NCBI RefSeq assembly: GCF_013315695.1
Contig: NZ_CP054353.1
Source: Escherichia coli
GTDB taxonomy: Bacteria; Pseudomonadota; Gammaproteobacteria; Enterobacterales; Enterobacteriaceae
DNA: 64,000 nucleotides
Strand: one strand, 5' to 3'
Positions 23,906-29,900 of the stretch are shown piece after piece. Each line of letters starts with the position of its first letter. The first letter of the stretch is position 1. The position numbers are program-made.

Positions 23906-26900
23906 TAACGCCCGGCTTTCATACTGCCGACCATCTGTTCTGGCCGTACCCAGCTGTCAAACTCGGCTTCGCTAAGATACCCCAGCGCAAGGGCCGCCGC
24001 TTTTAAGGTCAGCCCTTCTTTATGCGCTTTTTTGGCGATCTCGGCGGCTTTGTCATAACCAATGTGAGTGTTGAGCGCAGTCACCAGCATCAGCGATTCA
24101 TTGAGTAATTGATTGATTCGCTCACGATTCGGTTCAATGCCCACTGCACAGTGTTTGTTGAAACTTTCCATGCCATCTGCCAGCAAACGCACCGATTGCA
24201 GGAAATTATGGATCACCATTGGACGGAAGACGTTCAGTTCAAAGTTACCGGAAGCGCCCCCCATGTTGATTGCCACGTCGTTCCCCATCACCTGACAGCA
24301 GAGCATGGTTAATGCCTCACACTGGGTTGGGTTCACTTTCCCCGGCATGATTGAGCTGCCCGGCTCATTTTCCGGGATTGAGATTTCACCAATTCCGCAG
24401 CGCGGGCCAGAGGCCAGCCAGCGGACATCATTGGCAATTTTCATCAGTGACGCAGCCAACCCTTTCAACGCGCCGTGCGCCTGAACCAGGGCATCACAGG
24501 TCGCCAGCGCTTCAAATTTGTTCGGCGCGGTAACAAACGGTGCGCAGGTAATGACTGCCAGTTCATCTGCTACGCGACGCGCATACTCCGGATGGGTATT
24601 TAGTCCAGTACCCACAGCTGTACCGCCCATAGCCAGTTCCGCTACGTGAGGCAGGCTGTATTCAATATGTTTGAGATTATGCTCAAGCATCGCTACCCAG
24701 CCGGAAATCTCCTGCCCCAGTGTAAGCGGCGTGGCGTCCTGCAAGTGGGTTCGACCGATTTTTACGATATCGGCAAATGCACGGGATTTTTCACTCAGCG
24801 TCTGTGTCAGGGTTTTAAGCTGCGGAATGAGTTGCTTGCGCAGCGCCAGCAGCGCCGCAACGTGCATCGCCGTTGGAAAGACATCGTTAGAACTTTGGCT
24901 TTTGTTCACGTCGTCGTTAGGGTGAACTTTACGCTCCATCCCACGCACGCCGCCGAGTAATTCACTGGCCCGGTTAGCCAGCACTTCGTTCATGTTCATG
25001 TTACTTTGCGTGCCGGAGCCGGTCTGCCAGATAGCCAATGGGAATTCGTCGTCATGCTGTCCTGCCAGTACTTCATCCGCCGCCTGCCGAATGGCGCTCG
25101 CTTTCTCTTCAGACAACAAGCCTAAATCTTCATTAACTTTTGCCGCTGCGCGCTTGGTTAGCGCCAGCGCATGAATCAGTGAGGTGGGCATTTTCTCCGT
25201 CGAAATGCGGAAATGCTCCAGCGAGCGTTGAGTTTGTGCGCCCCACAGCTTATCTGCCGGGACATCAATCGTCCCCATCGAATCTTTTTCGCTGCGTACT
25301 GTATTCATGGCCTGCTCCTCACCTGATTAATTTTTTCTTTCTGTTTTGCTTTCGTTAAGCAACTTTTAGCTCACTTATTATTTACTATTTGATAACAAAT
25401 GTTTGGTCTTTCGTGCCATGTAAAAAAACCGCCCCGAAGGGCGGTAATGCCAGTCAGTTAAGCAACTGACTGGCTCTTTTTCGGGGCTGTGGGGTATTTC
25501 CAGGGCCTCTCCTTTACCACTCTCGGGAAGGCCCTTTCCCTTCTTGTCGGTAATTTCACAAGTTGTCCCATACTTGCAAGATCGCGCATCAGCTCCGGTA
25601 TACGTCCCGGTGAAGCGCCCTGCAATGTCATCAGCATTCTCATCACCATTCCGCATGATTCTGAGAAACTCAGTTGATTCGGCCAGTAACCTTTCAGATG
25701 TTCCGCCATTTTAATCATCTGATATCTCACCAGATTATAAGCCAGTAAGACACCCCACAGCTCTTGCTCCACAAGCTCCGGTTTTTTACTTCTCAGCGTC
25801 AGCCTGCTCAGTTGCATCGTCTGTTTTATCTCCCTGTATCCCAGTTCGATTTCCCAGCGATGACTGTACAGATCCGCCATTTCTCCTCCGGGGAAGCGCA
25901 TGGCGTCCGTCATCGACGTCAGCAGATGGCAGACTTTTCCTTTGCGCGTCACGGTCAGCAGGCGGGCTGTCACTTCATTTCCCAGTCCCGGCCACTTTTT
26001 TCGTGCCTGCGGGCTGGTTTTCAGCTTCACCAGATGATCGCCTTTACCCAGTTTTCTGATCTCTTCATATTGCGCTCCCTTTCTGAGAGGTATCATCCAG
26101 TGGCGGTGTTCTCCCGCCAGGCTCCAGGCATTTAACAGTCCCAGTGAGTAATAACCTTTATCCATTAACGTCAGAGTGTTATCGCCGGTTTGTTCTATAA
26201 GTTGCTCAGCAAGCTCATTTTCGCTGTTCTTCATCGTGCCGAAGGCTGCAGCCGTCAGCAGATGGCTGGTCAGTTCCATCTGGCAGACCATTTTGACCTG
26301 CGGGTAGAGCGCCGGGTTCCCGGCATGTGTCTGGCGGGGGAAGGCTGCATCGTTCTCTGGTGTATCCGGTGTGCGCCAGAACACACCATCGATGGCCAGC
26401 AGGGTCAGGCCGCACCAGTGCGGATGCGGCGTGGCGTTATGCCAGAGCTGCGCTGTTTTCGTGAACACGCGGCGGACAGCCTCACTTCCCAGGCGCTGGC
26501 GGGCCTGAATAACGGCACTGGGGGCAACGAAGGGGCGATTGCCCGGCAGCATGATGTCCAGGCGATTCACAATCTGGTGAAGAGGTTCTTTACGCTCAAG
26601 CGCCATGCCAACAATACACCAGACCATCATTTCGAGGGGAAGACGGCGCTTGCGTAGCGTTACAGTACCTGATTCGGCAAGGCAACGAGAGATGAGTTCG
26701 GGGTCGAGGTAATCCCCCAGAGAAGTCAGTGGGTTACGCAGAGAATCGTAACGGGATACCAGATCAAGAGCCTGTCCAATGTGCATAAAAAAATCCGGAA
26801 ACAAGTGAGCGTTTCCGGATTCTTACACAGCCACTGGATCGGTCAACTGATCCTTAACTGATCGGCATTACTCCCTGGGGACAGTAAATAAAAGCAAAGT

Positions 26901-29900
26901 ACCTCTGGGTTTAAGCGCAACCTATGGACAAACAGGAAACAAGGTTGCAGCCGGAACCGTCCAGTCAGTCATTGGTGTCACTTTTATCTATGAATAATTG
27001 TGATTTTGACCTTAGTCTATGCGCTCCATTCGCGAAAATTGCGCGGATAATTATTTTGTGAAGGCTATTATCCTACACCTGTAAGAAAATCCGCGCACAA
27101 TTAACGCCAGAGTCTTATTTTTTATATTGAAAAACATGTTAATTTAAACACTATGAGAGATGATGCTTAACTTATCGTATTTATACCATTCTATTATTTA
27201 ACGATAATAGATTAAAAATAGAAAGAGAGTAGTCCCCTACTCTTATATATCCATATTGACGATAATCCCTTTGTATATACTGTGCATCATCGCTATTTCA
27301 AATCCTAATAATTCATTTCCACACAGGATAAGTAGATGAAGAAAAAAATTGAATCCTACCAGGGGGCTGCCGGAGGTTGGGGTGCTGTTAAATCCGTAGC
27401 GAATGCAGTACGTAAGCAGATGGATATACGCCAGGATGTTATTGCCATGTTTGACATGAATAAGCCAGAGGGCTTTGACTGTCCGGGTTGTGCATGGCCA
27501 GATCCTAAGCACAGTGCGTCATTCGACATTTGTGAAAACGGCGCAAAAGCAATCGCCTGGGAAGTCACGGATAAGCAGGTAAACGCCTCTTTCTTTGCTG
27601 AGAATACGGTTCAATCATTACTTACCTGGGGAGACCACGAGCTTGAGGCTGCGGGGCGTCTCACCCAGCCTTTGAAATATGATGCCGTCAGCGACTGTTA
27701 CAAGCCATTAAGCTGGCAACAAGCTTTCGACGAAATTGGCGAACGCCTTCAAAGCTATAGTGATCCCAATCAGGTTGAATTCTATACTTCAGGCCGCACT
27801 TCCAATGAAGCTGCCTTTCTTTATCAGCTTTTTGCCCGTGAATACGGGAGCAATAACTTCCCCGACTGCTCCAACATGTGCCATGAACCGACCAGTGTGG
27901 GTTTGGCAGCGAGTATCGGTGTAGGTAAAGGGACCGTGTTGCTGGAAGACTTTGAGAAATGCGATTTAGTCATTTGCATTGGGCATAACCCTGGTACAAA
28001 CCACCCTCGCATGTTGACTTCGTTGCGCGCTTTAGTGAAACGGGGAGCGAAAATGATCGCCATCAATCCTCTACAGGAACGTGGCCTGGAGCGATTTACC
28101 GCACCGCAAAACCCGTTTGAAATGCTGACGAACTCTGAGACTCAGTTGGCCAGTGCCTACTACAACGTGCGCATTGGTGGTGATATGGCGTTGCTCAAGG
28201 GGATGATGCGCCTGTTAATTGAGCGCGATGATGCTGCAAGCGCCGCAGGTCGGCCCTCATTGCTGGATGACGAATTTATTCAAACGCATACCGTCGGCTT
28301 TGACGAGCTACGCCGTGATGTTCTCAATTCCGAGTGGAAAGATATCGAGCGTATTTCTGGACTAAGTCAGACTCAAATCGCCGAACTGGCTGATGCATAT
28401 GCCGCTGCCGAACGCACCATTATCTGTTACGGGATGGGGATCACTCAGCACGAACATGGTACCCAGAATGTACAGCAACTGGTCAATCTGCTGTTGATGA
28501 AAGGTAACATTGGCAAGCCTGGTGCGGGTATCTGCCCACTACGAGGTCACTCTAATGTACAGGGCGACCGAACCGTCGGTATCACCGAGAAACCGTCTGC
28601 AGAGTTTCTGGATCGCCTGGGTGAGCGCTATGGCTTCACCCCACCTCATTCACCTGGACATGCTGCAATCGCCAGCATGCAAGCTATATGTACGGGGCAA
28701 GCTCGAGCATTGATCTGCATGGGGGGCAACTTTGCGCTGGCAATGCCAGATCGGGAAGCGAGCGCTGTACCGTTAACGCAATTAGATCTGGCGGTACACG
28801 TAGCCACTAAGCTTAACCGCTCTCATCTGCTGACCGCACGGCATAGCTATATTCTGCCGGTTCTGGGACGTAGCGAGATTGACATGCAAAAAAGCGGTGC
28901 GCAGGCGGTAACCGTTGAGGATTCAATGTCGATGATTCATGCCTCGCGTGGCGTGTTAAAACCCGCCGGTGTAATGCTGAAATCAGAGTGTGCAGTGGTC
29001 GCAGGTATCGCGCAGGCGGCACTACCCCAGAGCGTGGTAGCCTGGGAGTATCTGGTGGAAGATTATGATCGCATTCGCAATGACATTGAAGCTGTGCTGC
29101 CAGAGTTCGCCGACTATAACCAGCGCATCCGACATCCTGGAGGTTTTCACCTGATAAACGCAGCTGCTGAAAGGCGCTGGAGGACGTCGTCAGGTAAGGC
29201 TAATTTCATTACCAGTAAAGGGCTGTTAGAAGATCCCTCTTCAGCGTTTAACAGTAAGCTAGTCATGGCGACAGTACGCAGTCACGATCAGTACAACACG
29301 ACGATTTATGGTATGGATGATCGCTATCGAGGGGTATTCGGTCAACGAGATGTGGTCTTTATGAGTGCTAAACAAGCTAAAATTTGCCGTGTAAAAAACG
29401 GCGAAAGAGTTAATCTTATTGCGCTTACGCCAGACGGTAAGCGAAGCTCACGCCGCATGGATAGATTAAAAGTGGTCATTTACCCTATGGCTGACCGCTC
29501 ACTGGTGACCTATTTTCCAGAATCGAATCACATGCTAACACTTGATAACCACGATCCATTAAGTGGCATTCCTGGCTATAAAAGTATTCCGGTTGAATTA
29601 GAACCATCAAATTAATGCCTCTTCTCATTTCTTCTGCTGTCATCCGCACAGCAGAAGAATTCCTCATTGACTATTATCGCGCAATTTGCTCACATGGATT
29701 AAATTAAACTACATACTATAAGATATAAACTTCTGCCTACAGATGTAAGAAACTCCGCTCAGTACTGAAGCGCCAGTCCTATTTCCTCTATTCTCCAGCC
29801 TGTTATATTAAGCATACTGATTAACGATGCTTAACGTCATTCGTTTAATAAACACATTTGAAATGCATGCGACCATAGTGAAAAATAAAATCACGCAAAG

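Follow-up and report, generated by a model that had tools for sequence, protein, structure and literature searches.

In a 64,000-nucleotide stretch of the Escherichia coli chromosome (the window), a complete copy of the insertion sequence (IS) IS4 separates fumC from a remnant of the fimbrial adhesin gene ydeQ, which is followed by the ydeQ-ydeP intergenic region and ydeP (Table 1). A preliminary description of the window had already placed a complete 1426-bp IS4 136 bp upstream of fumC, had noted that its flanks do not form a direct repeat and had taken the hairpin to its left for the terminator of fumA; reading the flanks and scanning for terminators bore this out. Both ends of the element and its inverted repeats (TAATGCCAGTCAGTTAAG / TAATGCCGATCAGTTAAG, matching at 16 of 18 positions, with the right end reading CTTAACTGATCGGCATTA) were read directly, and RefSeq annotates it as an IS4-like element. 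Its transposase open reading frame (ORF) is single and un-frameshifted and reaches 304 bits against the NCBIfam profile NF033592 transpos_IS4_1 (cutoff 115). The copy has the size, the imperfect inverted repeats and the single IS4-type DDE transposase ORF of the IS4 family; a promoter-like site upstream of this ORF was found by scanning the minus strand (26846-26819).

The target duplication generated by IS4 covers about one helical turn (11-13 bp). For the IS4 family a duplication of about 10 bp has been described (PMC2266710). No direct target repeat is present in the sequence flanking the window copy, and this copy, taken by itself, lacks that typical IS4 feature: its flanks read ...CCGCCCCGAAGGGCGG / IS4 / CTCCCTGGGGAC..., or in longer context ...AAAAAAACCGCCCCGAAGGGCGG / IS4 / CTCCCTGGGGACAGT... 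The halves of the window on either side of the element had been described as oppositely oriented, and the alignment to MG1655 agrees, the left half mapping forward and the right half in reverse.

The window is 100% identical, as its reverse complement, to the chromosome of E. coli MSB1_4I (NZ_LR898874.1), and the junction region has a full-length match of 100% identity in no other record. MSB1_4I is a sequence type (ST) 59 isolate from rectal carriage, obtained in 2014 and carrying CTX-M-14 (supplementary table, PMC8278603); the completed genomes of that study are Unicycler hybrid assemblies of Illumina and Oxford Nanopore Technologies (ONT) reads (PMC8278603). The literature found on this strain gives only isolation metadata and the ST, and no description of a rearrangement.

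The preliminary description had expected a reciprocal junction elsewhere, and a walk along the chromosome located it. A second IS4, 133 kb from the window copy, joins ydeQ5' to fumA and is flanked by CTCCCTGGGGAC / IS4 / CCCCGAAGGGCGG, so that the duplication halves are exactly swapped between the two elements. These are inverted relative to each other and identical at 1426 of 1426 positions, and the window copy is also identical at all 1426 bases to other IS4 copies of the same genome. When the halves at both recombinant copies are paired, the direct duplication expected of IS4 is recovered for each insertion. In MG1655 both targets are single copy, CCCCGAAGGGCGG at 1,686,712-724 and CTCCCTGGGGAC inside ydeQ at 1,586,935-946, about 115 bp from the 3' end of that gene.

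The parental state is found in the genome of AF3 (NZ_OZ547117.1), a close relative. Over about 29 kb of aligned loci it shows about 7 mismatches to MSB1_4I, of which two fall inside an IS4 copy. AF3 carries fumA-IS4-fumC with an intact direct duplication of 13 bp and ydeQ5'-IS4-ydeQ3' with one of 12 bp; the transposases of this pair are encoded on opposite strands, and the genes follow the K-12 order. Around IS4, CCCCGAAGGGCGG is directly duplicated in AF3, STEC17-190, CH10268 and RMDEC465, and CTCCCTGGGGAC in AF3 (locus L002), whereas both are split between the two copies in MSB1_4I. AF3 also contains two IS2 elements on opposite strands, one in a ydeT-like usher gene (usher-IS2-usher, duplication CATTT) and one in the exonuclease gene of a Qin-like prophage (exo-IS2-exo, duplication CCTCA). 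All four IS insertions have counterparts in MSB1_4I at matching positions and targets within near-identical flanking DNA. AF3 differs in its K-12 order, in its intact direct duplications and in the complete left end of the exo-gene IS2, of which the MSB1_4I copy is short by 15 bp at that junction.

In MSB1_4I the IS2 junctions are exo3'-IS2-usher-mid and exo5'-IS2-usher3', so that here, too, the flanks are exchanged relative to AF3, including the CATTT and CCTCA duplication halves; one junction has additionally lost 15 bp. The distance covered is 133.5 kb for the outer IS4 pair and 90.3 kb for the inner IS2 pair. Between the IS elements the chromosome consists of three blocks, S3, S2 and S1 (Table 1). 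S2 (87.7 kb, with dif, TerC, lsr, mar and the Qin-like prophage) has kept its native orientation, while S3 (37.6 kb, from the prophage int/xis through rspB, ynfF and rstAB-tus-TerB to fumC) and S1 (2.7 kb) have swapped places around dif and are both inverted. The IS4-mediated inversion of roughly 100 kb proposed in the preliminary description is supported as an inversion, but not in its extent, the span from IS4 to IS4 being 133 kb; likewise, the interval was not simply inverted as a whole, since only the 37.6-kb and 2.7-kb blocks are inverted and the inner 88 kb were turned back by IS2 x IS2 exchange.

In a survey of 5,426 complete genomes the fumC-IS4 junction was found in 15 and the IS4-ydeQ3' junction in 5. 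Both occur together in AF3 and MSB1_4I only, and they are fused in MSB1_4I only; the exo3'-IS2-usher junction is likewise confined to MSB1_4I.

Taken together, these data make it very likely that the window IS4 is the product of homologous recombination between two pre-existing inverted IS4 copies, accompanied by a nested IS2 x IS2 exchange. The ancestral chromosome would have carried two inverted IS4 copies, one in the fumA terminator hairpin with a 13-bp duplication and one inside ydeQ with a 12-bp duplication. A crossover within the identical 1426-bp elements would have inverted the intervening DNA and exchanged the flanks, and because of this flank exchange no direct repeat is left at the window IS4. 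In the same lineage the inner pair of inverted IS2 elements, in the usher gene and in the prophage exonuclease gene, would also have recombined, turning the middle 87.7 kb back. Either order of the two exchanges is conceivable, as is a single event with a double crossover. No gene was newly broken, because ydeQ, the usher gene and the exonuclease gene are already split by IS elements in the parent AF3.

Two inverted copies as boundaries, a reciprocal exchange of flanks and duplication halves and a relative in un-inverted order are what recombination between inverted IS elements leaves behind. The cause is textbook recombination between IS copies, an ordinary mechanism for which no new biology is needed. 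It explains the apparent anomaly of an IS that has no target duplication and connects genes separated by 100 kb in K-12. Large rearrangements of the E. coli chromosome have been traced to recombination between homologous IS copies (PMC5009759, PMC4173774). With the inversions of this type in long-term evolution and mutation-accumulation lines (PMC4173774, PMC5009759), our case shares the inverted copies of one family, the inversion of the DNA between them and the mismatched duplication halves. It differs in that IS4 and IS2 are involved, that the host is a natural ST59 gut isolate and that the exchanges are nested, with the middle kept and the end blocks swapped and inverted. The locus thereby offers a fully resolved case of nested IS-mediated inversions for which the parental state is kept in a sister genome.

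Several points weigh against this history. Either recombinant junction is present in a single one of the 5,426 genomes, MSB1_4I itself, and is therefore without an independent replicate; intermediates with one inversion, sought in the same genomes through the exo3'-IS2-usher and fumC-IS4-ydeQ3' junctions, were not found. The crossover point is not mappable, the IS4 copies of MSB1_4I being identical and the AF3 single-nucleotide polymorphisms (SNPs) being absent from both (the private differences of AF3 amount to 2 mismatches in the fumA-site IS4 and 1 SNP in the usher IS2). FtsK-orienting polar sequence (KOPS) motifs are too few for a test of polarity: the moved block has 0 vs 0 and the window's right arm 0/6. 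Finally, the structure is taken from one Unicycler hybrid assembly. At the collapsed IS4 (about 17 copies) and IS2 repeats, the assembler might have joined unique flanks that do not belong together, the true order being that of AF3 and K-12. The short-read draft of MSB1_4I in this Illumina and ONT study consists of 421 contigs, and the junctions are unique in the survey. Furthermore, S1 and S3 attach to the same IS4 end and the same IS2 end, and swapping them gives a self-consistent circular path; thus, the reciprocal junction alone is no proof of a real event. We nevertheless consider an assembly artefact improbable, since two independent repeat resolutions, at IS4 and at IS2, would both need to be wrong and the repeats measure just 1.3-1.4 kb, a length normally spanned by ONT reads. 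In addition, polarity around dif is preserved as in tolerated natural inversions, and related IS4-rich strains, IAI39 among them, are known to have a terminus rearranged in a similar way (PMC8347550).

It is very improbable that the inversion was coupled to transposition, with a single IS4 in the fumA terminator moving intramolecularly into ydeQ and generating the second copy together with the inversion, followed by a later reversion in AF3. Taken alone, the X-IS-Y / Y-IS-X flanks of MSB1_4I would also be expected from a replicative intramolecular inversion-insertion. However, IS4-family elements move by cut-and-paste and their transposases are non-replicative (PMC2266710), so that such an inversion-insertion is not expected. 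Three unrelated genomes (98% flank identity) have IS4 at the ydeQ site with annotated ydeQ fragments on both sides, apparently simple insertions, and AF3, with both insertions in intact direct duplications and in K-12 order, is the simplest ancestor; the nested IS2 exchange would be left unexplained. From the cut-and-paste chemistry and the pre-existing copies we infer a RecA-type homologous pathway rather than the transposase. The same pathway might flip the inverted pairs to and fro in culture, and the assembly might have caught a majority or arbitrary isomer. Because both inverted pairs, IS4 and IS2, are intact and identical after the exchange, flipping could mechanistically continue; the assembled sequence gives evidence neither way, but RecA exchange between 1.4-kb repeats is generally rare per generation, and we regard a mixture of isomers as extremely unlikely.

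The exchanges within the IS4 pair and within the IS2 pair also changed the arrangement of the replication terminus. TerB (AAATAAGGATGTTGTAACTAAAG) lies in the tus promoter and moved together with an intact tus gene. In the MSB1_4I record TerB is located at 2,546,044 (minus strand), dif at 2,583,965 and TerC at 2,600,992 (plus strand). The orientation of dif and TerC is as in K-12, whereas TerB is flipped and found 37.9 kb from dif on the opposite side; in K-12 it lies on the same strand as TerC, in MSB1_4I on the opposite one. Relative to K-12, the MSB1_4I TerB has G for T at one position 5' of the core. Opposed ter sites thus flank dif and tus is intact, the layout of a fork trap. Given the established polarity of Tus-Ter, TerB would now be the innermost barrier left of dif, stopping forks that have passed dif from the right, and TerB and TerC would form a trap of about 55 kb around dif. 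Leading and lagging strand polarity is preserved because both exchanges span dif; the guanine-cytosine (GC) skew of S3 agrees in sign with its new replichore, a consistent but weak signal.

The only other GTTGTAAC core in the TerB-TerC interval is a variant in ynfE (GCGTACAGATGTTGTAACCATTG; record 2,571,210; locus L005, 1211-1233), with C for T just after the core. This Ter-like sequence is located at 1,659,837 in K-12 and travels with the inverted block, keeping its polarity relative to its replichore.

Natural rearrangements of the termination area have been reported for EDL933, SMS-3-5, IAI39 (terB and tus relocated), S. flexneri and S. boydii (dif between terC and terB), and in all of them dif is bounded on either side by the innermost ter sites (PMC8347550; Goodall et al. 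2021). MSB1_4I resembles these cases in that the innermost ter sites have changed while dif is still between two opposed ones, and tus moves with terB as in IAI39. In the Shigella cases, however, terC is the flipped site, and in IAI39 terB swaps with terE (PMC8347550), whereas in MSB1_4I terB is flipped, 38 kb left of dif, and faces an unchanged terC 17 kb to the right, a layout not contained in PMC8347550. This natural layout, with TerB flipped left of dif and facing TerC, can be added to the tolerated variants of the termination area, and the rule for dif is obeyed in it. The two nested exchanges might have been a selected pair rather than neutral accidents independent of each other, the first inversion disturbing the terminus by turning TerC around and shifting dif about 90-120 kb, and the second compensating by restoring dif and TerC; we consider this unlikely. 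If true, this natural strain would have an unusually small trap, about 55 kb, with TerB in the place of TerA as inner left barrier. MSB1_4I would then serve, as it stands, as a natural test case for the effects of trap size and dif position on termination and on the resolution of chromosome dimers.

Next to the junction the fumA terminator is retained on the fumC side of IS4, with 7 pairs, of which 6 are GC, a loop of 4 and a T7 tail, and the IS4 transposase gene is now upstream of it. In K-12 it begins 6 bp past the fumA stop codon, the fumA-fumC intergenic sequence of MG1655 reading ...GTAAAAAAACCGCCCCGAAGGGCGGCTCTGTTTA(fumA stop), and CCCCGAAGGGCGG makes up most of the hairpin. The local context of fumC (IS4 end, retained fumA terminator, fumC upstream region) is the same as in the parent. 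The fumC-proximal end of IS4 itself (25449-25474, plus strand) contains a hairpin with an 11-bp stem followed by a T-run, oriented against transcription entering the IS from outside.

On the other side, IS4 had been thought to abut the ydeP promoter region, but the last 127 bp of ydeQ lie in between and the insertion is inside ydeQ. A simple scan revealed no outward promoter from IS4 towards ydeP, and the lone promoter-like site at that end faces inwards, in the direction of fumC. An EvgA-box-like site had been noted 200 bp from the IS4 end; it is indeed present, with 1 mismatch to what we take to be the consensus of Masuda & Church 2003, and its distance to IS4 equals that in the un-inverted parent. 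The ydeP context (IS4 end, ydeQ remnant, EvgA box) is that of the parent as well, locus L002 of AF3 showing 2 mismatches in 8,256 bp against the window from IS4 onward. Because the ydeQ insertion, identical in position and orientation, was already in place in the parent, the inversion changes nothing local to ydeP. An effect of outward IS transcription on ydeP, as suggested in the preliminary description, thus finds no support here. Judged from these sequence contexts, the inversion as such should not alter the regulation of fumC or ydeP. The EvgA pattern gave 2 hits in total vs 0.05 expected; the second box (TGCCTACAGATGTAAGAA, 29734-29751, 1 mismatch) lies between ydeP and safA-ydeO, consistent with the known EvgA control of the safA-ydeO operon. 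From the ydeQ remnant onward, the window (26871-64000) represents the un-rearranged left replichore arm ydeP...fdnG.

Table 1. Features of the window, corresponding elements in the MSB1_4I record (NZ_LR898874.1) and segments of the rearranged region with their MG1655 coordinates. Positions are those of the window unless another sequence is named.
Feature	Location	Strand or orientation	Basis or remark
Window 1-25444 on MG1655	1,661,282-1,686,724	forward	one 25,444-bp alignment, 98.3% identity
Window 26871-64000 on MG1655	1,586,946-1,548,905	reverse	
Segment fdnG...ydeP-ydeQ3'	MG1655 up to 1,586,946	+	then IS4
Segment S3, fumC...rspB-int	MG1655 1,686,724 to 1,651,549	-	then IS2
Segment S2, yneO...lsr...mar...Qin	MG1655 1,594,563 to 1,650,844	+	then IS2
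Segment S1, usher3'-ydeS-ydeR-ydeQ5'	MG1655 1,589,659 to 1,586,935	-	then IS4
Segment fumA...	MG1655 from 1,686,712	+	
Window part of S3 (ynfF...rstAB-tus-fumC)	1-25444		compared with K-12 and AF3, inverted and moved to the other side of dif
TerB, in tus promoter	22945-22967	+	sequence scans
tus, intact	22979-23908	+	annotation
fumC, intact, edge gene of the 37.6-kb inverted block	23905-25308	-	start at 25308
fumA intrinsic terminator, hairpin and T-run	25428-25445	-	terminator scan and fold; fumC side of IS4
CCCCGAAGGGCGG, half of 13-bp target duplication of the fumA-terminator insertion	25432-25444	.	other half adjoins fumA at the partner IS4
IS4, complete, 1426 bp	25445-26870	-	ends and inverted repeats read directly; RefSeq annotation
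IS4 transposase ORF, 448 amino acids	25458-26804	-	ORF list and NCBIfam profile; direction towards fumC
CTCCCTGGGGAC, half of 12-bp target duplication of the ydeQ insertion	26871-26882	.	other half adjoins ydeQ5' at the partner IS4
ydeQ 3' remnant with stop codon	26871-26997	+	annotated partial fimbrial protein; K-12 ydeQ alignment
EvgA-type inverted-repeat box ATCCTACACCTGTAAGAA, upstream of ydeP	27070-27087	+	pattern search
ydeP, intact, first complete gene of the un-rearranged arm	27336-29615	+	
Window IS4 copy	record 2,542,119-2,543,544		
Partner IS4, between ydeQ5' and fumA	record 2,674,171-2,675,596 (locus L006, 6172-7597)	opposite to window copy	
IS2 pair	record 2,581,150-2,582,480 and about 2,670,135-2,671,451	opposite strands	

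The fumA terminator hairpin (window 25428-25445) is a recurrent target of IS4, the 15 genomes with the fumC-IS4 junction coming from diverse backgrounds. Five of these sites were read (loci L003, L007, L012, L013 and L014); position and orientation are common to all. Four of them have a duplication of 13 bp and MS 21-1 one of 12 bp, with 0-9 base differences among the IS4 copies, which points to at least two independent IS4 insertions and a strong target preference. Another IS4 splits a yneO-type autotransporter gene (locus L005, 16121-17546) and has an intact 13-bp duplication, CTCCGGTAAGGGG, which resembles the CCCCGAAGGGCGG and CTCCCTGGGGAC targets in being C-rich, then G-rich.

The IS2 next to the prophage exo5' (record about 2,670,135; locus L006, about 2122-2136) is without the terminal 14 bp of one inverted repeat and 1 bp of CCTCA. 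This 15-bp deletion relative to AF3 should immobilise the copy and may be the scar of an abortive transposition. K-12 likewise has a partial IS2 (IS2E) in the Qin exonuclease gene ydfE (MG1655 1,650,078-1,651,548; locus L017, 5079-6549). We rejected the idea that it represents the same insertion as the ST59 exo-gene IS2, the sites being about 335 bp apart; IS2 entered this prophage gene independently in K-12.

For ST59, reference-based analyses of the terminus, such as those relying on the multilocus sequence typing (MLST) context of fumC or on synteny-based scaffolding, can mislead in IS-rich backgrounds. The hipBA genes are missing beside dif (locus L005, 13508-17546), and further decay of the terminus is seen in an IS1 between a truncated uidC and uidB and in frameshifts in uidA and lsrK (locus L006, 12292-16639; locus L005, 20455-22046). 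The rspA gene (record about 2,576,070; locus L005, about 6070) has a 204-bp in-frame deletion compared with AF3 and K-12, and the shortened gene, 1011 bp long vs 1215 bp for rspA, carries the annotation 'D-galactonate dehydratase family protein'. In the right arm of the window an IS1 (about 46422-47206) replaces dosC, yddY and the 5' end of dosP; the segment MG1655 1,565,587-1,567,399 is lacking and the annotation gives dosP a truncated N terminus, so that the oxygen-sensing cyclic di-GMP module DosC/DosP is lost.

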